A stretch of 64,000 nt of DNA from Candidatus Woesearchaeota archaeon (GTDB lineage: Archaea > Nanobdellota > Nanobdellia > SCGC-AAA011-G17 > JACPIM01), in NCBI GenBank assembly GCA_018302125.1, contig JAGWAC010000001.1, forward strand, positions 33,684 through 97,683, read 5' to 3'. A program made the translations under genes and the position numbers. Every line of letters starts with the position of its first letter. Position 1 is the stretch's first letter. This document shows positions 2,416-46,197 of the stretch, in pieces. The notes beneath the pieces are model-generated. The model was not told the DNA's origin. It worked only from the letters and a program-made list of their open reading frames with translations, and searched no databases.

Positions 2416-2479
2416 AAAACTTATTATACATCTCTTGGTTATTAATTTTTGTATATGATTTATATATTAATCTAAAAAA

Positions 2480-2610
2480 CTTCCGAAAATATAGTACTAG
2501 ACACCGGAAATATTGCGGCGTTTAAATTAGGATGTGAGCTCTATAACTTAGTTTTAACTACTGGACAAAATTGTACTGGACAACGGAGACCTGCCTGACG
2601 CTTATATAGG
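2480..2610 (+). repeat. promoter-like repeat element, copy A (3x TACT(A/G)GACA iterons + GCTTATATA TATA-like box)
   Basis: The first 29 nt (2480-2508, CTTCCGAAAATATAGTACTAGACACCGGA) match the start of copy B at 36709 (27/29 nt). The 3' end ...CTGCCTGACGCTTATATAGG is shared with copies B and C. Lies in the divergent intergenic region between 2415 and 2624. Confidence 0.5.
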
Positions 2611-2623
2611 AAAGTATATTTAT

Positions 2624-2857
2624 ATGATTGTGGTATTGAGAGCCAAATTTGAAAGTTTAGATGAACAAAGAAAATTCTTTGTAGAAATAAAAAAGAAATT
2701 AGGAATTGGAAGTCAAAAAATAAGTAAACTTCTTAGCCTAAAATCTCGTGGAGGTTTAGAAAGCTATACAGCAAAAAGAACATCACCGCCAGTTTGGATT
2801 ATTAAAAAACTATTTGAGTTATCGGGAATGAAACTGGCGATATTATTCTTGAAATAA
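2624..2857 (+). CDS. hypothetical protein (77 aa); probably continues in the +1 frame to 3117 (frameshift or pseudogene)
   Basis: ATG about 15 nt after the TATA-like box of repeat A. A second protein-like frame without a start codon (VIGNETGDIILEINDKKIIIEITRAIKRQAARFKIGQCYIQSFCNP...VASYDR) is open from 2818 to the stop at 3115-3117. It overlaps the 3' end of this ORF. Confidence 0.35.
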   Translation: MIVVLRAKFESLDEQRKFFVEIKKKLGIGSQKISKLLSLKSRGGLESYTAKRTSPPVWIIKKLFELSGMKLAILFLK

Positions 2858-3109
2858 ATGATAAAAAAATAATTATTGAAATTACAAGAGCCATAAAAAG
2901 ACAAGCAGCCAGATTTAAAATAGGTCAATGTTATATTCAATCTTTTTGCAATCCAAATTTAATGAAAATTTTAATCTGTTCTAAAAAATTGCTTAGTAAA
3001 ATAGAATTGAAAGCATTAGAAAATATGAAAACAATACCAATTTTTACTGAATTTGAAAATAATTGGGAAGAAAAGGTTTTAAATAGCTTATTAGAAATAG
3101 TGGCTTCTT

Positions 3110-7829: not shown

Positions 7830-7898
7830 TTCTTTCGAAAATCTTCCGGACAATACATTAATAAATAAGTTCATTGTATAGACTTATCTGTCTTTTTG

Positions 7899-7945: not shown

Positions 7946-10900
7946 TTGGTGAATGATGTTGTTGAACAAGTAGAGAAATTTCGTGATTTTCTAGAGCAAA
8001 ATTATCAAAATCAATTAAATGAAATTACATTAAAAGGAAGAAATTTTTTATTGATAGATTTCTCCAACTTATTAAAATATGATCATGAATTAGCAGATCA
8101 ATTATTAGATGAACCAGAAGAAACAATAAAAGCATTTGAATTAACATTAGATAATTTTGAAATTTCTCATTTCGTAAGAATTAGATTTCATAATCTACCA
8201 TTAAATCAAAAAGTAAAAATAAAAGATATAAGGTCTCAAGACCTTGGAAAATTTTTATTGACAGAAGGAATAGTAAGACAATCTTCTGATGTACGTCCTC
8301 AAGTTGTTTCTGCAAAATTTGAATGTCCTTCATGTGGTAATTCAATTTCAATTCTGCAAGTCGATGTAAAATTCAAAGAACCATATAGGTGTACATGTGG
8401 AAAAAAAGGAAGATTTAGATTATTGTCAAAAGAATTAGTAGATGCACAAAGAATTGTAATTGAAGAAAGTCCTGATTCTTTAGAGGGTGGAGAACAGCCA
8501 AAGAGATTAAATGTTTTCTTGAAAGAAGACTTAGTTGAACCAATTATGGAAAAGAAAACAACTCCTGGTTCAAAAGTAAGAGTAAATGGAATTATAAAAG
8601 AAATTCCTGTTCTATTGAAATCAGGATCTCCAAGTACAAAATATGATATTATGATGGAAGCTAATTTTATTGAGCCTTTAGAAGAAACTTTTGAAGAACT
8701 TGATGTTAACAAAGAAGATGAAGAAAAAATCATAGAATTAGCTAAAAATCCAAAAATATATGAAAAATTTGTAAATAGTATTGCCCCCTCAATTTATGGA
8801 CATTCTGATATAAAAGAAGCTCTTGCTCTTCAATTATTTGGTGGAGTAAGAAAAGAAAGAAAAGATGGAACATGGAACAGAGGAGATATACATATCTTAT
8901 TAGTTGGGGATCCTGGATCATCCAAATCGTCGTTACTTTTTTTTATGTCCAAAGTAGCTCCAAAAGCAAGGTATGTTTCTGGTAAATCAAGTTCAGCAGC
9001 AGGATTATGTGTAGCTCCAGATTCTTTAGTATTAAAAAATCCTGGATCTTTAATTAAAATAAAAGATGAAGTTGAAGAAAGACTAAAATTAGATTCTTCA
9101 AAATATTCAGATGGTATTTGGAAAACAAAAGATGGTTTTAATCAAAAAGTTTATACTTTAGACAATAATTTTAAAGTTAAAAGCGGGCAAGTTGAAAGTT
9201 TTTGGAAAATAAAAGCCCCGGAAGAAATGGTTTCTTTAAAATTACAAAGTGGGAAAGAAATTACACTTACAAAAAACACAAAACTACTAACAATAAATAA
9301 TGGAAAAATAGATTGGCTAGAATCAAATAAATTTATAAAAAATAATTATATAGCCACTGTAAATAATTTAAATGTTAAATCAGATTTATCAATTCCTACT
9401 TTATCATTAGTAACAAGAAATCCGGTAATTTACGGTGTAAAACCTTTCTTAAAAGAAATTTTGAGTAAAGTTAACAAGAGAGAATTAGCTAAAGAATTAA
9501 AAATTAATGAAAATAATTTATATCACAATTGGATAAAAGAAGGTGCAAGAGGAAATATAACTCTTAAGGATTTAAGAAAACTTTTAAACAAATTTAATTT
9601 AAAAGAGGATAAGATTATTGATTATATAACAAACTTATCTCTTTACAGAGCTTATAAATTTAAAATTCCAAAATATTTAAATGAAGATTTTTTGTATTTA
9701 ACAGGCTTAATTGCCGGAGATGGAGATCTATCTGAAAATAAAAGAAAAGATTCTGTTAAAATAAGACTTTCTAATAGTAATAAGGTTATTAGGGATAATT
9801 TTAAGAAAATAGTTAAAAACTTGTTTAATGTTAAAGCTGGACGATCAAGTAAAAAATCTGCCCAAAGATCAGAATCAATAGGGTTTAGTAATATAATTAT
9901 ATCAGAAATAATAAATAAATTATGTATACCAAAATCACATAAAATAGATATGGGTAGTCTTTTGCTAAATCTACCAAATAATTTAGTTGCTAATTTTGTT
10001 GCTGGATATTTTGATTGTGAGGGTAGCCCCGTGTATAGGGACAAAAAAGAAGGAAGCTCAATTTTAGAGATATCTTCTACAAGTAAAACTATTTTAAAAA
10101 AATTACAAATTGTTCTACTTAGGTGGGGAATACTTAGCACTTTAAGGGGGAAAAGAGCAAAGGGAAAAATAAGTAAGCGCACTAACTCAAAAATAATAGT
10201 TTCTAAACACGATAAAGATATTTTAACTATTTATGGAAAAGATAATTTTATCAAATTTAGGGATAATATTCCAATCAGACAACCCGATAAAAAGAAAGAA
10301 CTTGATTTTATTATCAGGAAAATAAATAAATATGATACAAATACAGATATTGTACCAAATATAAGTTCTTTGATAAAAACAATTAGGAAAAAACTAAAAT
10401 TAAATCTAAAATCGCTAAAGATTCGTAGAAATAATTATAGTAAAAATTATTTAAAAAAAATAGTTAATGAAATTGAAAGCATAACTTCAGAAACTTGTAA
10501 TGAGTTTTCATATTTAAAAACTCTTTCTGAAGCAAATATATTCTGGGATAAAATAAGAGAGATTAAAGTAATAAAACCAGATTATGAATATGTTTATGAT
10601 TTAACAGTTAAAGAATCACATAATTTTTTAGTTAATGGTGTAGTTGTTCATAATACTGCTAGTGTAGTAAAAGATGAATTTCTTAAAGGTTGGGCGTTGG
10701 AAGCTGGTGCTTTAGCATTAGCTAATAATGGATCAATCTACATTGATGAATTGGACAAAATGGATGAAGAAGATACTTCTGCTTTGCATGAAGGGCTTGA
10801 ACAGCAGCAAATAAGTTTTAGTAAAGCAAATATTCAGGCAACATTATTGACAAGAACATCAGCTTTAGCAGCAGCTAATCCAAAATTAGGGAGATTTGAT

Positions 10901-22593: not shown

Positions 22594-22831
22594 TACTAAT
22601 AATTTGTGAACTGCCAATCTCTTGAGATGGGGTAGTTCATTATTCTTTCAAATTCAATAGGAATATCTACGTCCAAAATAATATCTTGGACTGCGCCCCT
22701 AAAATGAAACAAATAGATAAGCAAGTACTACTTCTATTTAATATCTTCTGTTAAATATTCATCTTTTTGCTTGGATATAATCTAAATTTGTATGTTATTT
22801 TCTCTTTTTTCTTCATGATCCATATAAAAAT

Positions 22832-22890
22832 AATTTAGTATATAAGCACTAAGCAGATCCTCGGTTTGTCCAGTAGGTTTTGTCCAGTTG
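22832..22890 (-). repeat. promoter-like repeat element, copy C (2x TACTGGACA iterons + GCTTATATACTAAATT)
   Basis: The minus-strand sequence CAACTGGACAAAACCTACTGGACAAACCGAGGATCTGCTTAGTGCTTATATACTAAATT aligns with copies A and B. Lies in the convergent intergenic region 22594-23071. Confidence 0.5.
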
Positions 22891-23071
22891 TATTTATAAA
22901 TGGGAAAAGTTATAACTTTTAGTAGTTACTCAATCACAGCAGAGCTGTGGAGATTTCCTTGAGATTAAAAATGAAAAAGAATTTCTTATTAATTCTCTCA
23001 ATTGTTCATTCCCCATAGCTAAAAACCTAATTTCAAAAAAGTCCTAAACTTATCTTTTTAAAAACAAGTAA

Positions 23072-27185: not shown

Positions 27186-30100
27186 TTAATTAAACCACCC
27201 AATCAAAGCTTTCTGCTTGTCTTTCTCTTTTCCAAATAAAGATTCAATTCTTTTTTTTGTAATCTTTAAATTTTGCTTTAAATAAACAGGAAGATCATAC
27301 TTCTCAGCAATATCTAAAGCCATATTCAAATATTTTATGACAAATCCTTCAGAAACAGTGAGTAATAATTTACCCCCGCATTCAAGGCAAATTCCAGATA
27401 AAGGCGGCCTTCTGAATTTTGCATTGCATTCAACGCATCTGAATTGTTGCGTTGAAAATTTTCTTAAGTTTCCTTTTATATCTCTGATAAAATGTTTCTC
27501 AATAACTAATCTGGCAACATCTTGCTCATTAACAGCTCTTATTTTTTTAGCTAAATCTAATTGTCCCTTTACTTTTTCACCCATAGAAGGAATAAATTTA
27601 TATGCGCTACAAACGACCCCACGATTAATATCGCTAGTATCATGGGTAAACCCAAATCCCCCATATTGCTTTTCAGTATCTAAAAAATCTTTTACTTTAG
27701 AAATCTTAATTTCCCAAGGATTTTTGTATTGCATGGCAGCTTCATAAAATTCCAAAGGATAATTAAAAGCAACATCCATGTCAAATACCATGTCATCCAC
27801 TTCTGTAGGCAATAATTTAGAGCTTAATAATAAAGGTTCATCTTGTGTTGCCCCTTTAGTTTTCGGCAAATATTTTTTTGAAAAATTAAGCAAAACATCC
27901 ATTAATAACATAATGCAAGCTTCATCACCGTCACACCTAGTATTTATAATTTGATTACCCCAAATAATATTTCGTTCCTCTTTTTCTTTCCAGTCAACTT
28001 CCAAACAATAAGAATTTGCTTTTTCATTAATTATTTCAATAGACTTTACATAATCTATGAAAGCATCACCAAAAGAAATTAAAGGAATTTGCTTATGATT
28101 ATAAGATAATTTTCTTCCTTTAGTTTTTAAATTCAGCATATATTTTAATTTTTCAGCTTTCTTAGGATGATTTAAATTTAAAAAACAAGACAAAGTTCTA
28201 CAATCTATTCCACTATAAATTAAATGATGATTAACTGAATATTTTGGTTTTTTTCCGAGTCTTTTATAGATTTCTAAAACCGTTCTTCCAGGCAATCTTA
28301 GTTTACTTGAACAAAATCTCCCTATTAAATTAAATCTTGTCAATAAAAAAGATATATCATCTAAAAGAGATTTATTAACAGATGAAATATCAATAACATC
28401 TCGCTGAGTTACTATACTACCATCGCCATCAATATAAGCAGAAATATAAGCACTAACTATTTCATCAAGAGAATTATATAAAAATCTTGGAACCCTTTTT
28501 GTATGAGCATTTGATCCAGTTTTAAAGCAATATTTAAGTAAATAATAAATAATATCATAACAAATTGTAATCTTAGTATTATTTTCTTCTAAAATTGGTT
28601 TAACCCCAAAACATTTTCGCGTAGAATTAAAAATTGCTTCCTGAATTGACTTAGTACTATTTCTAAAACTAACTCGTTTTGTTGTTGCATTTGTATGTAA
28701 ATGTCCTTCGGCAGTATAATAACCAAGTAAATTAGCTAAATTTTCATCAATTTTAATTTTATTATTGAATTTAAATTTTCCAAAAAAACATCTAATCAAA
28801 GCTTTATCAGGAATATCTTCAATAGAAACCAAATTTAATTCTAACAGCTTTTTAAAATTATTCAATGGGACGCTTTGATACCATCTGCTTAGATTCTTTT
28901 TATATTCACCTTTAAAATTTAATTTCTCGCAAATAAATTTCCTCCCCAATCTATTCACTAAATTTTTAAAGAAATCAGAACAATTATCAATTTTTACTTT
29001 TGAAAGTATTTTTTCCGGTAAATTTTCAATAAATTCTTTAATTAAATTTAATTCTGTACTAAAATTTATTTCTGGTTTAAAATAATCTAAAACAAGTAAC
29101 TTATCATCTATTTTAATTTCATTTGCTTTTTTAAATTTAAAATTATTGCTTTCATCTAAAAACATAAAATCATGATTCTGAGTCATTGTATAATTTCTAT
29201 TTGTTGCAGTAGTAATTTTTATCCATTCTTCTGTTAATGGACCCTTAATAAAGTGTTTAATCTTTTTTTCTTTTATTTCTTTAGTAACAGGATCAGAACC
29301 ATATGCAACCAATTCTTGGTTGCATTCTACTTTTAAAGTTCCAACAGTATCGACTACTTTTGTTTTAGCCCCTCTTTTTATTAAATCTTCAACAAAGGGC
29401 CCAATTTCATCATAGTAGATTTTTTTGTTTTTATCAGAATAAACAAATTTAGTGGTTGGAAAAACACAGTCTCTTCTCATAAGTGAGTGCAAATAAGGAT
29501 GTGCTAAAAATCCTTGTGTTTTTGAAAATCCAATTATCCTTGACACTATGCCAGAAGATGTATGCGGGCTCAGACTGATAACTAATTGCCCTATCAAGTC
29601 TTCTTTTGTTTTGAGATTATAATATTTTTCAGTTTTGTATAATTTCTCAAGTAACTCGTCAATAAATCTAGAAATTTTAAGCATAACATCATCACACTTT
29701 TCATCTAAAGTATCTGGAGAACAAGGAATTACAATATCTTGTGATTTTAATTCAATAATTTGCTCATCATTAATAATCTCATTTCCATAAACATCTTTTT
29801 TATAGCTTAATTTTTTTAATCTTTCTAAATTTAAACCAATTTCTTTTGGTTTAAAATGAGTCAATGGCATCTCAATCATATCATATCTAATTGTACCGTC
29901 TTTATTTACATATAAACCATATTTAGCTCTCAAAATTCCCTTAGATAAATGTTCAACAATATGGTCTTTGCTACTTGTTCCCCTAACACCTTTAATCAAT
30001 TCTGGATAAGAATTTGTATCTAATATTTTCAAGGCATTTTTTAAATAATAATTAATGTCAATTTCTCTTTTTCTGGATTTTAATGTTTTTCTTCCGCAGC

Positions 30101-32144
30101 ACTCTTCATTATCATTTATTTTTTTACAAGTAGTACAAAAGAATTTTTGTATGCATTTGTTTCCACAGACCTCACAAAGAGAATAAACAGTCTCCTTATT
30201 GCACTTTTCACATAAAAAATTTGGAAAATCAGCATTAATTTTTCCTTTAGCTAAAGCATTGTTAAAACTTCTTGTTTTTCCCCCTTCGTTTCCAACAGCA
30301 AACAAAATTTGTGGACTCCCTGTTAATTTTCTCATTTTAGCTTTCTCAGGTCTGCCCATTCTTGCCCCAATTGAAGTTCCTGACTTATCCCTAATTTTAT
30401 ATTTACATTTTTCGTTCAAAATATCTAAAACATTTTCCTTATCAGAAATAAAATTAAAATCACCACCCAAATTTAACATCAAAGCTTCTTTCCATTCTCC
30501 TTCAATCACAACATATTCATTCAAAACATACTTGTGAAGCACCCCAATTAATTCTAAAATTCTTTTTGGTAGATTTTCATCTTTTAATTCTGGTTTTTGG
30601 TGATAAGGAATTACTAATTTATCATCTTTAAAAGCTCCTTTCCGAAGCCATTCAAGTAAAAGATTAAATTGCTCTTTATTTATTTCTGACCACCTAAATA
30701 AATATCTGGGATGTAAAGGTAAGTTCTTTTCAAGAGATAATTTTTTAGCCTCTTCAATAGAAATTTTTTTTTCTTTAATTCCAGTTTCTAAGCACCACCA
30801 TTCATCACAGTATCCAGGTGGAACTAATTTATGAGCTCTATTTAAAAAATCACCATAATTAATTAAAATATCACCCAAATGTAAAATTTCTTCAATATCT
30901 TTGGCAACTTTTCGAGCCTGTTCTGGATCTTCTAAAAATAAAACATCACCATTTTTTAATTTTACAATCGGCCCATCAATACTGTCACAAGACCCAACAA
31001 CACAGGCTTTTCCAGGCCTCTCAACTTTAAGTTGTGTACCAATAGCAATAAAATTATTTAAGACATACATGGTTGATGGGTGTATTGCTTGAGCGCTTAA
31101 ACCAGTATTTCTTCCTCTTCCGTATCGTAATCTAAAGCCGCCTTTTGCTAATGGGTGAGTAAAAACAGGTCTACCAGCTACTAAATCTTTAATATATGTG
31201 TAGTCTGGTTTTATCAAAACATTAGAATTTTCAGATTTTTCCTGTGCTTTGCTTTTCTGTTGTATTTTCAAAAATTCATCTAAGAAATTCCATTCGTCAC
31301 TAAAAAAATCTTTTCCCCATTTCTGTAATTGTGCAAAAACTTTCTTTGCTTTCTGCGCAAAACATTCTGCAAAAACCAAGCAAAAACCATTCCTTATTAA
31401 ATTAGTCCCAATTCTGTCTAAATCTTTATAATTGCTTACTTCAAATTTCTCAGAAGGATCTCCTGTAATTTGGACAGGTATTTTTGAGGCTAAAAAAACT
31501 ATTTCTTCATCACTGGGTAAATATTGTAAATTTGTAATTCTTTCATGATAATCTTTTACTTCTGTAACACTTCTCTTAATCTCTTCTTTTGTTGCATCAT
31601 AAACATCATATCCCATTTTTAATCTTATATAATCAGCAACAACAACAGATACAGAAGCACCTGTGCCGCCCGCGCTCCTGATTGGGCCAGAATAATATAA
31701 AGCAAAGTATTCCTTTCCGTCTCTTCTTTTTTTTAATTCCAACCTTACAAATCCCTCTAATGGTGAAACAACTACACCAAGAGTAATATACGCAAGTCCA
31801 AATCTAATTCCTACCTCCATAGCTTCTCTTTTGTCTTTAAATTTGCAAAACTTCTCCTGCGCAATTTCTAAAGAAATAGTCAAAGCAACCCGCCAATCTA
31901 TTCTCCCGAATTGTTTCTCAAGATCTTCAATTCTTTTCTCAATTCCTTGGTTTTTTACTTGTGGAGCAACTATAGAAATTAAGCCAACAGCCCTATCAAC
32001 CATATTTTGTGCCAAAGGAATGTCAACAAAAAGTTCAGGATCAATGCCTTTGCTTCTCGCCTTATTTGCAGATTCATAAGCCTTCTTGATTTCATTATCA
32101 AAATCTTCAAAATATTTCTTAATATCTTCACTGGCAACTATCAT
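27186..32144 (-). CDS. DNA polymerase II (PolD) large subunit DP2, interrupted by an intein
   Basis: Conserved DP2 N-terminus. Catalytic region has ...HPYLHSLMRRD [intein] (TR)CDGDEACIMLLMDVLLNFSKKYLP, the PolD signature. C-terminal zinc fingers. 1652 aa including the intein. Confidence 0.95.
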   Translation of the reverse strand: MIVASEDIKKYFEDFDNEIKKAYESANKARSKGIDPELFVDIPLAQNMVDRAVGLISIVAPQVKNQGIEKRIEDLEKQFGRIDWRVALTISLEIAQEKFCKFKDKREAMEVGIRFGLAYITLGVVVSPLEGFVRLELKKRRDGKEYFALYYSGPIRSAGGTGASVSVVVADYIRLKMGYDVYDATKEEIKRSVTEVKDYHERITNLQYLPSDEEIVFLASKIPVQITGDPSEKFEVSNYKDLDRIGTNLIRNGFCLVFAECFAQKAKKVFAQLQKWGKDFFSDEWNFLDEFLKIQQKSKAQEKSENSNVLIKPDYTYIKDLVAGRPVFTHPLAKGGFRLRYGRGRNTGLSAQAIHPSTMYVLNNFIAIGTQLKVERPGKACVVGSCDSIDGPIVKLKNGDVLFLEDPEQARKVAKDIEEILHLGDILINYGDFLNRAHKLVPPGYCDEWWCLETGIKEKKISIEEAKKLSLEKNLPLHPRYLFRWSEINKEQFNLLLEWLRKGAFKDDKLVIPYHQKPELKDENLPKRILELIGVLHKYVLNEYVVIEGEWKEALMLNLGGDFNFISDKENVLDILNEKCKYKIRDKSGTSIGARMGRPEKAKMRKLTGSPQILFAVGNEGGKTRSFNNALAKGKINADFPNFLCEKCNKETVYSLCEVCGNKCIQKFFCTTCKKINDNEECCGRKTLKSRKREIDINYYLKNALKILDTNSYPELIKGVRGTSSKDHIVEHLSKGILRAKYGLYVNKDGTIRYDMIEMPLTHFKPKEIGLNLERLKKLSYKKDVYGNEIINDEQIIELKSQDIVIPCSPDTLDEKCDDVMLKISRFIDELLEKLYKTEKYYNLKTKEDLIGQLVISLSPHTSSGIVSRIIGFSKTQGFLAHPYLHSLMRRDCVFPTTKFVYSDKNKKIYYDEIGPFVEDLIKRGAKTKVVDTVGTLKVECNQELVAYGSDPVTKEIKEKKIKHFIKGPLTEEWIKITTATNRNYTMTQNHDFMFLDESNNFKFKKANEIKIDDKLLVLDYFKPEINFSTELNLIKEFIENLPEKILSKVKIDNCSDFFKNLVNRLGRKFICEKLNFKGEYKKNLSRWYQSVPLNNFKKLLELNLVSIEDIPDKALIRCFFGKFKFNNKIKIDENLANLLGYYTAEGHLHTNATTKRVSFRNSTKSIQEAIFNSTRKCFGVKPILEENNTKITICYDIIYYLLKYCFKTGSNAHTKRVPRFLYNSLDEIVSAYISAYIDGDGSIVTQRDVIDISSVNKSLLDDISFLLTRFNLIGRFCSSKLRLPGRTVLEIYKRLGKKPKYSVNHHLIYSGIDCRTLSCFLNLNHPKKAEKLKYMLNLKTKGRKLSYNHKQIPLISFGDAFIDYVKSIEIINEKANSYCLEVDWKEKEERNIIWGNQIINTRCDGDEACIMLLMDVLLNFSKKYLPKTKGATQDEPLLLSSKLLPTEVDDMVFDMDVAFNYPLEFYEAAMQYKNPWEIKISKVKDFLDTEKQYGGFGFTHDTSDINRGVVCSAYKFIPSMGEKVKGQLDLAKKIRAVNEQDVARLVIEKHFIRDIKGNLRKFSTQQFRCVECNAKFRRPPLSGICLECGGKLLLTVSEGFVIKYLNMALDIAEKYDLPVYLKQNLKITKKRIESLFGKEKDKQKALIGWFN
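27942..29468 (-). mobile_element. PolD DP2 intein (about 509 aa) with LAGLIDADG endonuclease
   Basis: Starts CVFPTTKFV right after MRRD. LAGLIDADG-like motifs LLGYYTAEGHL and ISAYIDGDGSI. The C-terminal junction is ...GNQIIN/TRCDGDE. The exact end (27936 or 27942) is uncertain because there is no His-Asn. Confidence 0.75.
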
Positions 32145-33739
32145 AATACATCTTTATCTTCAAAAGTTTGTTTCATAAAATTTAAAATTTTTATTTCGCG
32201 GCTCTTCAAATTTATTAAAGTCACTTTAGCAGTATCTGTTTTGCTGCCGGTTTTTTCCTGATAAGGTGTTAACCCCTCCCAGCATCCACACCCAATTAAT
32301 GAAACATTTCTATAAACAATATTACTAATTTGATGCAAATGTCCTGTAATGATAAAATCAGGAATATTATCAATTATTAAAAAATCATTTTTAGCATCAG
32401 GTACATATAAAGTAGCAGTATGTGTCGGACTTAAATGCCTTCTTTGTAATAAATATTTCATAATTAAATCCCCCCTAGAAGTCCACCCATTGCTTCTTAT
32501 ACTCTCAATATTATCAGCATAATAAACAAAACTTTTGCCATGATACAATATAACATCAAAACCAGAAAAATCCCCAGAAGAATGTAGATTAATAAATCCT
32601 GGATTAGTAACTAGAATAACATTCTCAATTTCAAAAAGTTCTGGAGCAAACTCCTTGTCTAAAATAGGTTGTGGCTCACTAACTCTAACAGAATCATGAT
32701 CTCCAGGACATAAAATAATCAGTACATCTTTTCTTATTTTAGAAAGTAAATTTGCTAATTCCCTATATTGTTCTCTTATGTCTTTAATTTCCAAATCATT
32801 ATCCTGTCCAGGATATACACCAATACCAGCAACTAAATCCCCAGTCATTGTTATATATTTTATCTTTCGAGCAATCTCTTTTTGTTTCTCCTCTCCTACA
32901 TTACCATTTACCCATTCAATAAAATTCAAAAAATCCTCCTTATAAAATAATCTTGAACCAACATGAATATCTGAAGTACAAATTAAATAACATTCGTCAG
33001 GACTTTTCTTCAGTTCCTTAGTCAATGGAATATCAGGAAAAACAACTCTTCTTCCAAATAAAACACCCTTACTAAAGCTTCCAACAATACCTATAACCTC
33101 ATCCAAAGAAACCTCTTTACAAGTATTATAAAGTTCAAAATCATTTTTCCCAACAATTACTTTTATTCTTCCTGTTAAATCCTCTATATCAAAAATAAAA
33201 TTGCTGTTTTTCGTTATCTCTTTATTCATAACAATCCCAATAATAGTTGCCTTCTCTTTGTCCTTTTTATTCAGGACTTTATTAATAGAAATAACATCTC
33301 GTAATTCCTGTCTTTTTTCGAGAATATCTCTTAAAACTTTATATCTATTCCTAAAATATTCAACAAAATCTTGTAAATCAATTTTTTTATCTGGTTTTAT
33401 ATAATCTTTAATTATTTTTACAGATGATTTTAATGCTTGTTCTTCTTTTACAATTTTTTTAACATTTATCAACTCTAAAAAATTATCATATTCAATCCTG
33501 CTTCTTCCTTTTTCCAAAAAAACTCTCGCCCTTTCAATCTCATCCCAGTTAACGCTTAATTTTTTAAAAATACCTAAAGATTCTAGTATATGCCTGTTAA
33601 TTATTAAAGGTTTATCTAAAAAAAGATTCTCTTCTAATAAATTAATTATCTTTTCAATCTCAAAACTAGAATCAAAAACATCTGGGCTAACTAAATATCC
33701 TTTCTGCATTAAAGATTGTACAACTTCCCCCTTTTCCAT
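32141..33739 (-). CDS. DNA polymerase II (PolD) small subunit DP1 (phosphoesterase/exonuclease)
   Basis: Calcineurin-like phosphoesterase motifs (DIHVGS, GDLVAGIG, CPGDHD, GHLH) and an N-terminal OB region. Overlaps DP2 by 4 nt. Confidence 0.9.
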   Translation of the reverse strand: MEKGEVVQSLMQKGYLVSPDVFDSSFEIEKIINLLEENLFLDKPLIINRHILESLGIFKKLSVNWDEIERARVFLEKGRSRIEYDNFLELINVKKIVKEEQALKSSVKIIKDYIKPDKKIDLQDFVEYFRNRYKVLRDILEKRQELRDVISINKVLNKKDKEKATIIGIVMNKEITKNSNFIFDIEDLTGRIKVIVGKNDFELYNTCKEVSLDEVIGIVGSFSKGVLFGRRVVFPDIPLTKELKKSPDECYLICTSDIHVGSRLFYKEDFLNFIEWVNGNVGEEKQKEIARKIKYITMTGDLVAGIGVYPGQDNDLEIKDIREQYRELANLLSKIRKDVLIILCPGDHDSVRVSEPQPILDKEFAPELFEIENVILVTNPGFINLHSSGDFSGFDVILYHGKSFVYYADNIESIRSNGWTSRGDLIMKYLLQRRHLSPTHTATLYVPDAKNDFLIIDNIPDFIITGHLHQISNIVYRNVSLIGCGCWEGLTPYQEKTGSKTDTAKVTLINLKSREIKILNFMKQTFEDKDVL

Positions 33740-34950
33740 TATAAACTTAAATCCTCTTTTAACATATTATTTATTTTTATAGCAGTTGAATTTGGTATTG
33801 CTAAGCAAATCTCTCTTGTTCTCCCATATCTTCCCTTGCTGATTACTTTGGCATTAATTATTCCCAACAAGTCAAGTTCAGCAACAATATCGCTTAATCT
33901 TCTCTGAGTTAAAGGCCTATCCCCTGTTCTGAAACAATAATTTTTGTAAATTTCATAAATATCCCCAGTAAAAATACATTTATTTGCTTTCAAAAACATT
34001 TCAAAAATAGCATAAAGAGTTAGCTTAAACTGTTTTGGCTGGCTGTTGACAATGTCAATTATTCTGTCTCTTTCAATTTTTGCTTCAGCAGCATCAATAT
34101 TCTCTAATGTAACTGTTTTTTTATTTCCTCTCTCAACTAATTCTCCTGCTACTCTCAATAATTCTAAAGCTCGCCTGGCATCACCATGTTCTTTTGCAGC
34201 ATAAGCAGAACATTTTTCAATTACTCCCTCCTCAATTACCTCCCCCTTAAAAGCAATTTCTGCTCTTTCTTTCAAAATTTTTTGTAATTGTAAGGCATTA
34301 TATGGTGAAAAAACAAGTTCTTCTTCACTCAAACTGCTTTTAACTCTTGAATCTAAATTATCTGCAAATACCATATCATTCGAAATTCCAACTAAAGAAA
34401 TCTCACTATTAAGTAACTCAGAATTTAATCTAGTTAAATTATACAGAATTTCATCCCCAATTTTATTTACTAATTGATCAATTTCATCAAGAACAATTAT
34501 TAATAATTGTTTTTTTTCATCTAAATATTTTATAAAACCCCTATATACTTCATCAGTTGGTAAACCTGTTGCCGGTACTTCTCCACCAAATTCTCTTGTT
34601 AACTGCGCAAGCAATCTATATTCAGTATCTGCAATTCTTTTTAGTTTACAATTAAGATAAAAAATCCTTAAATTAACATTCTTTTTTTTAGAAAGATCTA
34701 GTAGGTTTTTAATTACATACTTAACACAAAGGGTTTTACCAGTTCCTGTTCTACCATAAATAAATAAATTAGATGGTTTTTCCATTCTCAGACTAGGCGC
34801 TAAAATATTTGCAATTTGTTTTATTTCATTTTCTCTGTAGTGAATATTATCAGGAATGTAATTACTTTGTAGGGCCTTTCTGTTCTTAAAAATAAAATCT
34901 TTTTTCAAATAACCTTCAAAAAAATCAGTTAACCCTTTTTCATCAACCAT
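33739..34950 (-). CDS. cdc6: Orc1/Cdc6 replication initiator
   Basis: AAA+ Walker A (YGRTGTGKT), Walker B (LDEIDQL) and a C-terminal winged helix; 403 aa. Lies directly next to the ORB-containing intergenic region. Confidence 0.95.
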   Translation of the reverse strand: MVDEKGLTDFFEGYLKKDFIFKNRKALQSNYIPDNIHYRENEIKQIANILAPSLRMEKPSNLFIYGRTGTGKTLCVKYVIKNLLDLSKKKNVNLRIFYLNCKLKRIADTEYRLLAQLTREFGGEVPATGLPTDEVYRGFIKYLDEKKQLLIIVLDEIDQLVNKIGDEILYNLTRLNSELLNSEISLVGISNDMVFADNLDSRVKSSLSEEELVFSPYNALQLQKILKERAEIAFKGEVIEEGVIEKCSAYAAKEHGDARRALELLRVAGELVERGNKKTVTLENIDAAEAKIERDRIIDIVNSQPKQFKLTLYAIFEMFLKANKCIFTGDIYEIYKNYCFRTGDRPLTQRRLSDIVAELDLLGIINAKVISKGRYGRTREICLAIPNSTAIKINNMLKEDLSL

Positions 34951-34999
34951 AGTAATCCTAAAAACATAAAATTCTATTTAAAGATTCTTATTTTTTCAT

Positions 35000-35023
35000 C
35001 CCACCCCCCTCTTTCCTATAGAA
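35000..35023 (-). promoter_or_regulatory. ORB-like box 1 (TTCTATAGGAAAGAGGGGGGTGGG on minus strand)
   Basis: Dyad TTC....GGAA followed by a G-string, as in archaeal origin recognition boxes. Confidence 0.5.
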
Positions 35024-35024
35024 A

Positions 35025-35040
35025 CCACCCCTTCCGGAAA
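35025..35040 (-). promoter_or_regulatory. ORB-like box 2 (TTTCCGGAAGGGGTGG on minus strand)
   Basis: TTCCGGAA dyad plus GGGGTGG. Confidence 0.4.
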
Positions 35041-35225
35041 ATTTTCATAAAAAGTAAAATTTTTTTAAATATAAATAAAAAGTGAAAAATAGAAAAAGAA
35101 AAACATATAATAAAGAATAAAAAAATTTATAAAAGCAAATAAAAAATAGAAAAAATCATAAAAACTTATTAAAAACTTATTTTTTTATATTTCATTCAAA
35201 AAAAGAGGTTTAAATAATAAACTCT

Positions 35226-35252
35226 TTCCAAAGGAAATGGGGGGGTGGGGGT
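35226..35252 (+). promoter_or_regulatory. ORB-like box 3 (TTTCCAAAGGAAATGGGGGGGTGGGGG)
   Basis: Close to the ORB consensus TTCCAnnGGAAA followed by a G-string. Oriented inverted relative to boxes 1 and 2. Confidence 0.55.
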
Positions 35253-35333
35253 TATATTCTGAAAAGATTATATAAAAAATATACAAATCCAAACCCAGAA
35301 AGATTTATAAATTAGATAAATTATTAAAAGAAA

Positions 35334-35630: not shown

Positions 35631-36623
35631 ATGAAATCAACTAAAGATATTAAAGTCTCAAGTAAAATATATGAGCAGATCATAGGGCAGAATAAAGCCC
35701 TAGAAATAGTTAAAAAAGCAGCAAAACAAAGAAGGAATTTATTATTAATAGGAGACCCAGGAACAGGAAAATCTCTTTTAGGTCATGCATTAGCAGAATT
35801 ACTGCCAACAGAAAAACTTGTTGATGTTCTTTCTTATGATAACCCAATAGATGAAAATACACCAATAATAAAAACAGTTCCTCGGGGAGAAGGTAAAGAA
35901 ATAGTCTCAAAAGCAAGACTTCAAGCAATAACATCTTTTAAGAAACAAAGTACTTTTATATTTATTTTAGTAATTTTATCAATGATCACACCATGGTTAA
36001 TTAGAAAACAATATGGTGACATAATGGCAGCAGCTTCTTTAATAGGTTCAATGATTTTTTTAGGTGCATTTATTTTATTCTTAAATATTAATAGAAGAGT
36101 TAAAACCACATCAAGAGTTCCCAAATTATTAATTGATAATTCAAATACAAAAAAAGTTCCTTTTTTAGACGCTTCAGGAGCACATGCTGGAGCACTACTT
36201 GGTGACTGTTTACACGATCCATTACAATGCCTAAATAGTAGTAACAATATTTTTATAATTAAAGAAATAGGAAAAGATAAATATATCTTACAAGAAGAAG
36301 ATATTAGTTTAAAAATTAATAATTTATTAGAAAAAAATAAAGACAAAATAATTAAAAGAAAAGATTATTCTGCAGTTCATTTAAAAGAAGGGGAATTAAA
36401 AATTTTAGGAGAAAGAAATAAGAACATTCAAGACGTTACTGTATTATCAGTAAATAAACATAAAAATCACCACAAATATTTAATAAAATTAACAACAGAA
36501 ACTGGAAAAGAATTAATTGTTACGTCAGAACATAAAATAGCAGTTAAAGATTTTTTCAATAAAATAAAATATATTGCTGCAGAAAATTTAAAGCCATGGC
36601 ATAAATTAATCACTCTCGAATAA
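35631..36623 (+). CDS. LonB protease N-terminal fragment (AAA+ N-half with membrane insertion) fused to the intein N-fragment (IntN, 36228-36620)
   Basis: Walker A GDPGTGKS, two TM helices, then ...AHAGALLGDCLHDPLQ matching the LonB sensor region. Next comes CLNSS... (intein block A) and LIVTSEHKIAV (block B), then a stop. IntN is 131 aa. Confidence 0.8.
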   Translation: MKSTKDIKVSSKIYEQIIGQNKALEIVKKAAKQRRNLLLIGDPGTGKSLLGHALAELLPTEKLVDVLSYDNPIDENTPIIKTVPRGEGKEIVSKARLQAITSFKKQSTFIFILVILSMITPWLIRKQYGDIMAAASLIGSMIFLGAFILFLNINRRVKTTSRVPKLLIDNSNTKKVPFLDASGAHAGALLGDCLHDPLQCLNSSNNIFIIKEIGKDKYILQEEDISLKINNLLEKNKDKIIKRKDYSAVHLKEGELKILGERNKNIQDVTVLSVNKHKNHHKYLIKLTTETGKELIVTSEHKIAVKDFFNKIKYIAAENLKPWHKLITLE

Positions 36624-36708
36624 TTATTTAGTTGTCTTCCGAAAACTTTCCGAAATTTATTAATTTTTCCAGAAACTTTACAGTTGATTTATAAATCAAT
36701 CCAGAAAT

Positions 36709-36792
36709 CTTCCGAAAATATAGTACTGGACACCAGACGCCCGCCTAGCGCTTATATACTAAATTAGCTTATATACTAAATTATCTTATATC
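36709..36792 (+). repeat. promoter-like repeat element, copy B (1x iteron; TATA-like box tandemly duplicated)
   Basis: CTTCCGAAAATATAGTACTGGACACCAGACGCCCGCCTAGCGCTTATATACTAAATTAGCTTATATACTAAATT. Upstream there are partial CTTCCGAAAA copies at 36637-36660. Confidence 0.5.
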
Positions 36793-36812
36793 TTTTTATG
36801 ACAGAAAAATAG

Positions 36813-37289
36813 GCTAGCATAATAATTTCAGAACAAAATATAATAAATACTTATAATAAATGGCAACAAGAGCAAAGCAAATTATATTTAGAATATAAAA
36901 AAATAAAACAAGAAAATCCAGAGCTTGGTCATAAAAGAATTGCTACACTTCTAAACCAACCACATCATAAAACAAGATAGTGGCATGAAAAAAATAGAAT
37001 AATTAATTTTTTTGAAGTAGCTGCACTTAAATGCTCTTGTTGTGGAAAACTAGGTCAACATATAGATAAATCAAAAAATATTCAAATTATAAGAAGTCCA
37101 GAATTTTTTAATATTTCATCAATAGAAGAATGGGAAAAGTTTATTGATGAAGAACTTAAATTTTTAATTCAAAACAAAGAAGAAGTACTTCTTATACTTC
37201 CAGAACTTGAAAATAAATGGAAAGAGTCTTGTAAAGCATTAAGAAAGCTAATTAAACAAACAACAAATACTCAACACCAACATTTATAA
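36813..37289 (+). pseudogene. degenerate ORF between the two lon halves, in-frame with the lon N-part, with internal TAG (36978-36980) and no start codon; HTH- and HNH-like hints
   Basis: Frame reads ...WQQEQSKLYLEYKKIKQENPELGHKRIATLLNQPHHKTR*WHEKNRIINFFEVAALKCSCCGKLGQHIDKSKN...KALRKLIKQTTNTQHQHL*. Possibly the remnant of a homing-endonuclease-like gene. Confidence 0.3.
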
Positions 37290-37366
37290 ATTTTCTTTTC
37301 TTTTAATACATTAACCAAGTAACTTATTCCTAAATCAGGAGTTGATAAGAACCTTGGTTCTTATTT

Positions 37367-38731
37367 ATGAATCTAAAAACAGAAAAAATAGAAAAAATAG
37401 AAAAAATCCCATATAATGGATATTTATATAATTTGGCAACTACTACGGGTAATTTATTTGCAAATGGAATTCTAGTTAAAAATTCAGGAGGCCTAGGAAC
37501 TCCTGCATATGAAAGACTAGTTCCTGGAATGATACATAAAGCAAACAAAGGAGTTTTATTCGTTGATGAAATCGCAAATTTAAAGCAAGAGTCTCAACAA
37601 GAATTATTAACAGCAATTCAGGAAAAAAAATATCCTATAACAGGGCAGTCAGAAAGATCTAGTGGAGCAATGGTAAGATCAGACCCTGTTCCAACAGACT
37701 TTACCTTAGTAGCAGCAGGTAATGTAGAAACTATAAAACATATTCATCCAGCATTAAGATCTAGAATACGTGGTTACGGTTATGAAGTTTATATGAATAA
37801 TGAAATGGAAGATACAAGCGAAAATAGGCAGAAAATTATTCAGTTCATCGCACAAGAAGTTAGAAAAGATGGCAAAATTCCACATTTTAGAGAAGATGCA
37901 ATTAATGAGATAATAGAAGAAGCAAGAAAAAGAACAGGCAAGCATGGTCAATTAACATTAAGGCTGCGTGATTTAGGGGGTTTAATCAGAGCAGCAGGAG
38001 ATCTAGCATTAGAAGAAAAAACAGACTTAGTAACTCTAAAACAAGTTATCAAAGCAAAAGAATTAGCAAAAACACTAGAGCACCAACTAGCAGATAAATA
38101 TATAGAAAATAAAAGAAAGTATGAAATTATAATTACAAAAGGTACTCAAATAGGAAGAGTTAATGGTTTAGCAGTAATGGGTTCTGATTCTTCTTATTCA
38201 GGTATTGTTTTACCAATAGAATCAGAAATAACCCCTGGCGGAAAAAAAGCAGAAATTATAGCAACAGGTAAATTAGGAAAAATAGCTAAAGAAGCAGTAA
38301 AAAATGTCTCAGCAATTATTCTAAAATATTTTGGTGAGGATATAAAAGAAAAATATGATATTTTTGTACAATTTATACAAACATACGAAGGCTTAGAAGG
38401 AGATTCAGCATCTATAGCAGTTGCAACTGCAATAATATCCGCATTAAAAAAAGTACCAGTAAGGCAAGACACAGCAATGACAGGCTCATTATCAGTCAGA
38501 GGAGAAGTTCTCGCAGTAGGCGGCGTCTCATCAAAAATAGAAGCAGCAATTAGTGCAGGAATAAAAAGAGTAATTATTCCAAAAACAAATGAAAAAGATG
38601 TGATATTATCAAAAGACAAAATAAACCAAATACAAATAATCCCAGTCTCAAAAATAGAAGAAGTTCTAGAGCAAGCCCTAGACTGGAAAAATAAAGAAGA
38701 AATATTAATGAAAATAAAAAGATTTAAATAA
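37367..38731 (+). CDS. intein C-fragment (IntC, 37367-37483) fused to LonB C-terminal fragment (rest of AAA+ domain plus Lon protease domain)
   Basis: [39 protein letters not shown] (intein blocks F and G) is followed by S and [29 protein letters not shown] (LonB Walker B region). C-terminal protease domain with Ser-Lys dyad context ([24 protein letters not shown]). Confidence 0.8.
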
Positions 38732-46096: not shown

Positions 46097-46197
46097 CGGG
46101 CCCGGAGGGATTTGAACCCTCGGCCCTCTGGTAACTCCAAGAGCTTAAGAGCTTCATCCTTTTGACAGATGCTCTAACCAAGCTGAGCTACGAGCCC
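46097..46197 (-). tRNA. intron-containing tRNA (101 nt), anticodon unresolved; intron apparently non-canonical
   Basis: Clear acceptor (GGGCTCG/CGGGCCC), D-arm (GCTC-AGCTTGGTTA-GAGC) and T-arm (GAGGGTTCAAATCCCTC), with discriminator G. About 28 extra nt sit between positions 31 and 39. No canonical 37/38 intron placement gives a U33 loop. Confidence 0.6.

Follow-up and report, generated by a model that had tools for sequence, protein, structure and literature searches.

Three related repeats in a 64,000-nucleotide (nt) stretch of a Woesearchaeota contig (Candidatus Woesearchaeota archaeon, GenBank assembly GCA_018302125.1, contig JAGWAC010000001.1; the whole stretch is called the window here) are quite probably copies of an archaeal promoter cassette that is portable and serves selfish DNA-cutting genes, the promoter role being predicted from the layout of the repeat and its distance from start codons. 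All three copies in the window, which we call A, B and C, are attached to what appear to be dead remnants of selfish nuclease genes, and related genomes and metagenomes of Woesearchaeota yielded 20 further copies, some of them in front of genes that are intact. The cassette is real and restricted to this lineage; the observation is solid, and what goes beyond the word 'promoter' in the mechanism set out below is what we infer from it. The window has a GC content of 28%, and its genes and their closest database relatives are those of Woesearchaeota.

The cassette and its copies

The motif TACTRGACA, the unit of the direct repeats (iterons) of the cassette, occurs five times in the window (at 2495, 2559, 2574 and 36724 on the plus strand and at 22875-22867 on the minus strand), where 0.31 occurrences would be expected, and none of 100 shuffled sequences reached five; the second iteron unit of copy C is the variant AACTGGACA, with CTGGACA at 22887-22881. 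The TATA-box 9-mer GCTTATATA is found seven times, against 0.97 expected, with matches at 2600 in copy A, at 36750 and 36767 in copy B and at 22847-22839 on the minus strand in copy C. With a profile made from 17 copies, exactly three members are found in the window, at 2548-2625 for copy A (E 1.8e-17), at 36702-36770 for copy B (E 4.6e-13) and at 22903-22821 for copy C (E 1.5e-18). A preliminary description of this DNA had proposed a three-copy family, and the family is real, all of the sequences described being present in the window where they were said to be; its members nevertheless run beyond the limits first drawn for them and extend over 2456-2623 (copy A), 36636-36800 (copy B) and about 22978-22817 (copy C, of which 22915-22817 is the cassette proper). 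The proposed iteron counts of three, one and two for A, B and C were also borne out, and they are explained by the existence of a long and a short form of the cassette, together with a deletion in copy B.

The short form, of about 130 nt, begins with ACTAyTTtTCAATTAGAACTTCTCC, which is followed by TATA box 1 (TTTATAAAT), two ACTGGACAAA iterons 13-15 nt apart and a variable spacer of 8-10 nt; its 3' part is made up of a GC box (CyGCCTrrCGC), TATA box 2 (TTATAWA, or CTTATAWA as an 8-mer) and then TAAATTATCTTATT. In the long form, of 230-265 nt, TATA box 1 is weaker, CTTCCGAAAATATAG and CCGGAAAT..GCGGCG flank an additional, third iteron in a distal position, and an array of TTCCGRAAA boxes lies farther upstream; this form is seen in copies A and B and in the related loci L016, L030, L013, L018, L027 and L001. 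Conservation follows linear blocks, 25 columns being invariant when 17 copies are aligned, and a shared 3' end of the cassettes was looked for and none was found. At 7830-7860 the window also holds a pair of TTCCGRAAA-type boxes (TTTCGAAAATCTTCCGGACAATAC) that resembles the upstream array of the long form; the pair has neither iterons nor TATA box 2 and lies upstream of a 1222-amino-acid (aa) open reading frame (ORF) that starts at 7946.

Copy A (2456-2623, plus strand) is of the long form, with a TCCG box CTTCCGAAAATATAG at 2480-2494, one distal iteron TACTAGACA at 2495-2503, a weak TATA box 1 (CTATAAC) at 2541-2547, two proximal iterons at 2559-2567 and 2574-2582, the GC box CCTGCCTGAC at 2590-2599 and TATA box 2 (GCTTATATA) at 2600-2608. 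It is 85% identical over 165 nt to the cassettes of L016 and L030, which front other genes, and at position 2455 a contig from a sister strain (L020) carries 74 nt of upstream TCCG array that the window does not have. Copy B (36636-36800, plus strand) looks like a long form with a deletion that runs from the distal iteron to the last proximal one and leaves a single unit: an array of TCCG boxes at 36636-36700, with the TATA-like TTTATAAAT at 36688-36696, is followed by CTTCCGAAAATATAG at 36709-36723, a single iteron at 36724-36732, the GC box at 36740-36749 and TATA box 2 at 36750-36758. The duplicated TATA box that had been noticed in copy B is indeed present and is due to a 17-nt tandem duplication of the GCTTATATA region, with the second copy at 36767-36775 and a degenerate third at 36784-36792, ahead of an ATG at 36798. 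The sequence CTTCCGAAAATATAG common to A (2480) and B (36709) had likewise been recognised, but the likeness is longer than was thought, reaching 87% over 53 nt (2456-2508 and 36685-36737). Copy C (22817-22915, minus strand), of the short form, has TATA box 1 (TTTATAAAT) at 22900-22892, iterons AACTGGACA and TACTGGACA at 22889-22881 and 22875-22867, and the GC box with TATA box 2 (GCTTAGTGCTTATATA) at 22854-22839, and is 79% identical over 104 nt to the cassette of L022. The GC-box ending ascribed to all three copies sits at the positions given for it, except that CTGCCT does not hold for copy B, which reads CCGCCT before its TATA box.

Sequence collections were scanned with the pattern ACTGGACA-N8-14-GCYTRRYGCTTATA. 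Among GTDB species genomes there were 11 matches, five of which are true copies in three Woesearchaeota metagenome-assembled genomes; the other six lie in unrelated bacteria and look like chance. JGI and ENA metagenome contigs gave 20 matches, of which 14 are true copies on contigs of 26-32% GC, among them L020 and L028, which correspond to copies A and B of the window itself, and synteny around LonB led to three further copies (L039, L040 and L043). A profile search of 249 kb of archaeal loci returned only these 23 copies. The wider motif search that had been suggested for this family did find further members, their absence having been named as a refutation. Three pattern scans of IMG/VR viral contigs gave no true copies, and a viral origin was set aside, the seven matches to the iteron-pair pattern there being chance matches in coding DNA of 36-53% GC.

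Genes behind the cassette

Every copy, in the window as in the relatives, stands in front of a homing endonuclease gene, a tnpB gene, an ORF of 61-69 aa or a remnant. LAGLIDADG endonuclease genes follow the cassettes of L001, L005a and L030 (Pfam LAGLIDADG_3, E from 1e-5 to 4e-10) and, with a weak match, that of L008 (Pfam E 0.004); L016 has a NUMOD3-repeat nuclease (Pfam NUMOD3, E 1e-15), to which the protein of L013 is related by BLAST; and TnpB is encoded behind the cassette in L006, L017 and L026 (Pfam Cas12f1-like_TNB and OrfB_IS605). The 61-69-aa protein is found behind L005b, L021, L022 and probably L023, where the contig ends before the ORF, and several copies have short remnants. None of the about 55 ordinary genes in the window carries the cassette, nor do any others in 249 kb of related loci, which speaks against a host regulon as the setting of the regulon-specific promoter that had been proposed from the repeats.

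The 61-69-aa protein is helical and is conserved behind the cassette in at least three and probably four genomes (L005 286-1655, L021, L023 and L022 1333-1542), and in three of these it directly follows a second, 352-aa cdc6-like gene. This protein may be the regulator of the cassette, for which it is a candidate, or a part of an integrated element; a search of the window for this protein found none.

Copy B lies between the two halves of a split LonB gene, as had been described. The N-half (35631-36623, plus strand) ends in the N-part of a split intein (CLNSS...TSEH...LITLE*) and matches Pfam AAA/Mg_chelatase and, at 219-322, Intein_splicing, while the C-half (37367-38731, plus strand) begins with the intein's C-part (...GILVKN|SGGLGTP) and matches Lon_C, LonB_AAA-LID and the C-end of Intein_splicing. 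In the gap is a decayed endonuclease gene (36798-37289, plus strand), the intact form of which is roughly 360 aa long and LAGLIDADG-like. Its codons 1-67 have been fused by a deletion to a second, small Cys-rich ORF, and there are in-frame TAG codons at 36810 and 36978; by blastx, 36798-36998 is 85% identical to the gene of L039 (E 6e-37) and 36990-37259 is 68% identical to ORF2 of L040 (E 2e-43). In L039, whose LonB C-half is 92% identical to that of the window, and in L040 (84%), the same gap holds a cassette, an intact gene for 355-360 aa that starts 22-23 nt after TATA box 2, and an ORF of 43-95 aa; this gene resembles LAGLIDADG genes weakly, at a blastp E of 1e-4 and with no match in Pfam. 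Cassettes occupy the same LonB gap in L039, L040 and L043, the last with another decayed version of the gene, and in L041 and L042 the gap between the LonB halves is empty and 158 nt long. Copy B is the predicted promoter of a decayed free-standing endonuclease gene in a fractured LonB gene, here in an archaeon. Recoding of TAG in the ORF behind copy B was considered and rejected because TAG is the ordinary stop of 8 of the 55 ORFs of the window; relatives have the intact gene from which this ORF arose by deletion.

Among the best 120 homologues of the C-half, the majority are separate proteins, 450-460 aa long and from Woesearchaeota and Nanoarchaeota, whereas LonB proteins that are free of an intein have 614-625 aa; the split of LonB is therefore old and presumably functional. 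The junctions ...HDPLQ|CLNSS...TSEH...* and ...GILVKN|SGGLGTP keep the splicing residues, and in L045 the two halves are unlinked. No description of a split LonB intein was found in the literature searched; the naturally split LonB intein, conserved in many Woesearchaeota, is a candidate for a new trans-splicing pair. Two observations concern the same gene. L028, which is otherwise 100% identical to the window, lacks the 142 nt at 35976-36117 that encode the membrane-spanning part of the LonB N-half; either they were deleted in that strain, in which case the frame would shift, or their absence is an assembly artefact. Directly before the ATG of the C-half, at 37341-37364, there is a palindrome, perfect over 16 nt and conserved in its flanks (GTTGAT-AAGAACCTTGGTTCTT-ATTT), which could be a terminator hairpin or an operator; near-identical palindromes occur in L006 (72-87), L016 (3906-3921) and L022 (6288-6303), in no fixed relation to the cassette.

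Copy C was said to point into a gene-free region, and it does face a convergent gene, but a 21-codon tnpB-like remnant comes first (22751-22816, minus strand; MKKKEKITYKFRLYPSKKMNI*), starting 22 nt after TATA box 2 and reading MKKKEKITYKFRLYPSKK right after the cassette. On its other side, at 22935-22978 (minus strand), is a sequence resembling the left end of an insertion sequence (IS): TTTTTCAT, 9 nt, CAAGGAAA and a hairpin CCACAGC-TCT-GCTGTG, an assignment that was made by manual comparison and is moderately secure. The same order is seen at the left end of the intact IS of L017 and L026 (TTTTTCAT, 11 nt, CAAGGAAA and the hairpin CTCAGTCTT/AAGACTGAG). This element, which is 99.4% identical over 1375 nt between L017 (118-1489) and L026 (4187-5561) although its flanks differ, carries the cassette and then tnpB between the hairpin at its left end and another, CTCAGGC/GCCTGAG, at its right end; the L017 TnpB matches the OrfB_IS605 and zinc-ribbon/TNB families of Pfam (E 1.8e-20 and 3.3e-11), and there is no Y1 (HUH) TnpA within the element itself. 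It is a tnpB-only element of the IS200/IS605 type, with subterminal hairpins and no terminal inverted repeats at its ends, and intact TnpB genes stand behind the same cassette in L006 as well as in L017 and L026. We read copy C as a truncated IS of this kind, of which the left end, the promoter and the first 21 codons of the tnpB element are left. Positions 1-89 of L017 match window positions 89-1 at 98.9%, and because of this overlap an intact 1.37-kb IS, with a fourth copy of the cassette, is placed in the sister strain at about 30 nt beyond the left edge of the window.

Behind copy A is a decayed orphan ORF (2624-3109, plus strand) that consists of a 77-codon ORF at 2624-2857 and a frameshifted continuation; the distance of 15 nt from the TATA box to its ATG is as previously reported. 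The intergenic DNA from the B12-radical-SAM gene to TYW1 that holds both is 694 nt long in the window and only 82 nt in L047, 91 nt in L048 and 64 nt in L049, none of which has a cassette there; TYW1 of L047 is 86% identical to that of the window, and the left flank AAAACTTATTA is common to both. Because these relatives have short intergenic DNA free of the cassette, copy A and the frameshifted ORF are evidently an insertion of about 610 nt. A visual impression that the ORF might be the N-terminus of a helix-turn-helix (HTH) LAGLIDADG protein was not upheld (BLASTP E>1, blastx E>0.5).

Promoter geometry and competing explanations

The promoter-like character attributed to the repeats is supported by their geometry, since TATA box 2 stands 22±2 nt before the start codon, as do the TATA boxes of ordinary promoters of this genome. 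In 11 of the 18 copies listed, whatever the gene, the ATG follows the TATA box 2 8-mer at 21-24 nt; the ordinary promoters of the window have TTTATAAA, TTTATATA or TTTAAATA and then about 22 nt to the ATG, which is evidently the geometry of leaderless archaeal promoters. In L005b, L021 and L008 the ATG is 34-40 nt from the matched motif, with GGAGGTGA or GGTGA between them. The last iteron keeps a steady 18-21 nt, mostly 21, from TATA box 2. At the position of the transcription factor B recognition element (BRE), where ordinary promoters have AAAnC, the cassette has rrCGC or GTGC, which departs from a purine- or A-rich BRE. A structure at the level of RNA is not apparent, as RNAalifold on 17 copies gave no conserved structure (-0.05 kcal/mol, no covarying pairs) and no stem-loop, and the cassette has no Rfam match at E<=1.

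Taken together, these features suggest a mechanism in which TATA box 2 (CTTATAWA) would direct a transcription start some 22 nt downstream, either at the start codon itself, giving a leaderless mRNA, or just ahead of a short leader with a Shine-Dalgarno sequence. CyGCCTrrCGC at the BRE position, whose high GC content sets it apart from the A-rich BRE in front of ordinary genes, would make a weak or specialised site for TFB. Archaeal activators usually bind upstream of the BRE, and the pair of ACTGGACAAA direct repeats that precedes TATA box 2 by a fixed 18-21 nt may bind a sequence-specific protein that helps or gates the recruitment of TBP and TFB and on which the weak site would depend; the transcription start, the iteron-bound regulator and its activating role are all predictions from sequence. 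As each selfish gene would have to supply its own expression signal, the cassette would be copied along with the gene, its carriers being free-standing LAGLIDADG and NUMOD3 endonuclease genes and tnpB elements of the IS200/IS605 type. Once the gene had decayed the cassette would remain as a fossil, the state in which all three copies in the window appear to be.

Several points weigh against this reading. Free-standing LAGLIDADG genes that have no cassette exist in the same loci (L001 5474-6088 and L022 2075-2989), and four copies (L005b, L021, L022 and L023) front the 61-69-aa ORF, which is not evidently selfish. The ORF behind copy A has no homologue among 5.8 billion proteins, and the remnant behind copy C matches Pfam HTH_OrfB_IS605 over positions 6-18 with 13.9 bits (E 0.038), below the curated cutoff of 21. 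The scan pattern was derived from the cassette itself, and diverged copies before ordinary genes would be missed by it. TATA box 1 is nearer than TATA box 2 to the canonical TATA box of the genome and could be the real promoter or a second one, in which case the iterons would be in the position of a repressor site. Promoter activity and start site are predicted from geometry alone, and the iteron-binding protein is a postulate.

Alternatively, the cassette could be the operator-promoter of a host regulon, with a cellular factor reading ACTGGACA and TTCCGRAAA sites and the selfish genes having captured it. Conservation in blocks and steady spacing are typical of factor-binding sites, the box pair at 7830-7860 (of TTCCGGA type) is found before an ordinary gene without the rest of the cassette, and a small ORF is conserved behind the cassette in four genomes; however, with the cassette missing from ordinary genes throughout the window and the related loci, and with copies A and B in DNA that is absent from relatives or held there as a mobile gene, we think this unlikely. 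An autonomous miniature mobile element, similar to a miniature inverted-repeat transposable element or a mobile promoter, that lands upstream of genes by chance is harder still to credit. It would account for two 85-nt copies in L005 that are 100% identical, have sharp boundaries and stand before unrelated genes, and for L013, L018 and L027 of one metagenome, which are alike over about 200 nt of cassette and differ in their flanks and downstream ORFs. Yet the only terminal inverted repeats seen are AT-rich chance pairs, none common to the copies, and there is no target-site duplication in the flanks of the identical L005 copies; the 3' edge always lies at promoter distance from a start codon, which random insertion would not yield; and in the IS the cassette is internal to the left-end hairpin. 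The small mobile promoter module of the preliminary description therefore holds in part: the cassette is portable, being found in an IS, as the cassette of a fractured-gene endonuclease and in an insertion that has no counterpart in relatives, but as it is never met apart from an adjoining ORF or remnant and lacks the marks of an element that moves by itself, it appears to move with its gene.

The copies might instead be recombination modules, an archaeal analogue of the PeSL (promoter-early stem-loop) cassettes of phage T4, with dispersed identical promoters acting as crossover points at which gene cassettes are swapped or deleted. Copy B does resemble a deletion product between two iterons and has its 17-nt tandem duplication, the stretch missing from the decayed endonuclease gene lay between two short repeats that code for KNR, the orthologous LonB gap holds the long form in the window and the short form in L039 and L043, and the L039 copy is nearer to copies of its own genome (0.76-0.77) than to its ortholog in the window (0.66). 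Against these observations, identity within genomes overall exceeds that between genomes only slightly (0.74 and 0.67), there is no stem-loop terminator of the PeSL kind, and no two genomes were found to carry the cassette at an orthologous locus in front of different genes; such a role, which is compatible with a promoter and does not exclude it, seems improbable as the explanation. Concerted evolution, considered separately, is suggestive only, because 0.74 barely exceeds 0.67. The least probable of the readings is that of a structured small RNA gene or of iterons of an origin recognition box (ORB) type bound by Orc1/Cdc6. The reverse complement of the iteron, TGTCCAGT, contains TCCAGT, which we take to be shared with the ORB core, and in L005, L021 and L023 a copy directly follows the cdc6-like gene, but the folding and Rfam results speak against an RNA, and the window's own ORB-like pair, next to its cdc6 gene, is unlike the iterons. 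ORB iterons were rejected on the grounds that the iterons have neither the ORB dyad (TTCCA..TGGAAA) nor the G-string and that real ORB-like boxes are found beside cdc6. A scan for sigma-70 promoters was not used because the organism is archaeal.

Known systems and neighbouring features

The portable promoter that we favour is of a known kind, and it is as a variant, an archaeal TATA-type promoter with DNA iterons, that it appears to be new; no description of the cassette was found in the literature searched. In fractured genes, a free-standing endonuclease gene brings with it a conserved upstream control element, which recurs before endonuclease genes in different host genes and can outlast the endonuclease (Dassa et al. 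2009, PMC2677866). Copy B shares this layout, in which an endonuclease gene with a control element of its own lies between the halves of a split-intein host gene. The known cases are bacterial or from phages, and their element is a late-promoter sequence TATAAATA inside an RNA hairpin that controls translation (PMC2677866); the cassette differs in its archaeal host, in being a TATA-type promoter that carries DNA iterons and lacks a hairpin, and in serving TnpB elements and endonuclease genes outside inteins as well. PeSLs are mobile regulatory cassettes of T4-type phages (PMC2839356, PMC4122927), and the likeness to them lies in a short conserved promoter cassette that is repeated in a genome before unrelated, variable and often orphan genes and is tied to insertions, deletions and replacements. 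Whereas a PeSL combines a bacterial sigma-70 promoter with a terminator stem-loop and is found in phage genomes (PMC2839356, PMC4122927), the cassette has no stem-loop, and its place is in the cellular genomes of archaea, where it goes with nuclease genes.

In its position between the left-end hairpin and tnpB in L017 and L026, an order that copy C keeps, the cassette also resembles the internal left-end promoter of IS200/IS605 elements (tnpB-only, IS1341-like). It differs from such a promoter in that it is also found without IS ends, before LAGLIDADG and NUMOD3 genes, so it is neither an IS-specific sequence nor a recognition site for a transposase. Activator-dependent archaeal promoters with upstream sites next to a weak BRE or TATA box are exemplified by those of Ptr2 in Methanocaldococcus and TFB-RF1 in Pyrococcus, and the cassette resembles them in having repeated sites at a steady distance directly upstream of the BRE and TATA box, together with an atypical BRE. 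We know of no described factor to which the motif ACTGGACAAA could be assigned, and its regulatory role here is putative. Two things set the cassette apart from the fractured-gene elements, the PeSLs and the left-end IS promoters alike: it is an archaeal TATA-type promoter with DNA iterons, and it is common to protein-guided endonucleases and RNA-guided TnpB.

That three mechanistically different classes of homing-type nuclease (LAGLIDADG, NUMOD3-type and TnpB) have one expression signal suggests either that genome-cutting activities are regulated in common or that selfish elements exchange regulatory parts freely. A bolder and rather doubtful idea is that Woesearchaeota have one dedicated control circuit for all selfish genes that make double-strand breaks, protein-guided endonucleases from two families or more and RNA-guided TnpB alike, with a common operator (the ACTGGACAAA iterons and the GC box), a common trans-acting factor, possibly the 61-69-aa protein, and cassettes that double as crossover points. 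If this were so, every genome-cutting activity could be turned on or off at once by the cell or by one master element, and dispersed identical cassettes would also provide crossover points for the exchange of nuclease genes. Promoters and regulators of DPANN archaea, which cannot be cultured alone, are to our knowledge essentially uncharted, and a sharply defined 130-nt cassette of steady geometry would be a ready test object for their study. It is also a practical marker, a search for which turns up selfish nuclease genes together with their fossils, among them pseudogenes overlooked in gene calling or labelled 'hypothetical'.

Three further features of the window may be mentioned. A probable replication origin at 34990-35260 consists of inverted ORB-like boxes (GTTTCTATAGGAAAGAGGGGGG at 35025, within 35004-35046, on the minus strand, and CTTTCCAAAGGAAATGGGGGGG at 35224, within 35224-35251, on the plus strand) that flank about 200 nt of very AT-rich DNA; the Orc1/Cdc6 gene (33739-34950, minus strand; Pfam Cdc6_lid and Cdc6_C) is directly downstream of the pair, and the order cdc6, PRC-barrel, LonB is kept in L039 to L042. 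An ORF of 1652 aa at 27186-32144 (minus strand) contains a LAGLIDADG-like segment (tblastn match at 28260-28751) and is probably another intein-bearing gene. Finally, a 101-nt Rfam tRNA match (51 bits) at 46097-46197 (minus strand), which ARAGORN did not call, is probably a tRNA that contains an intron.

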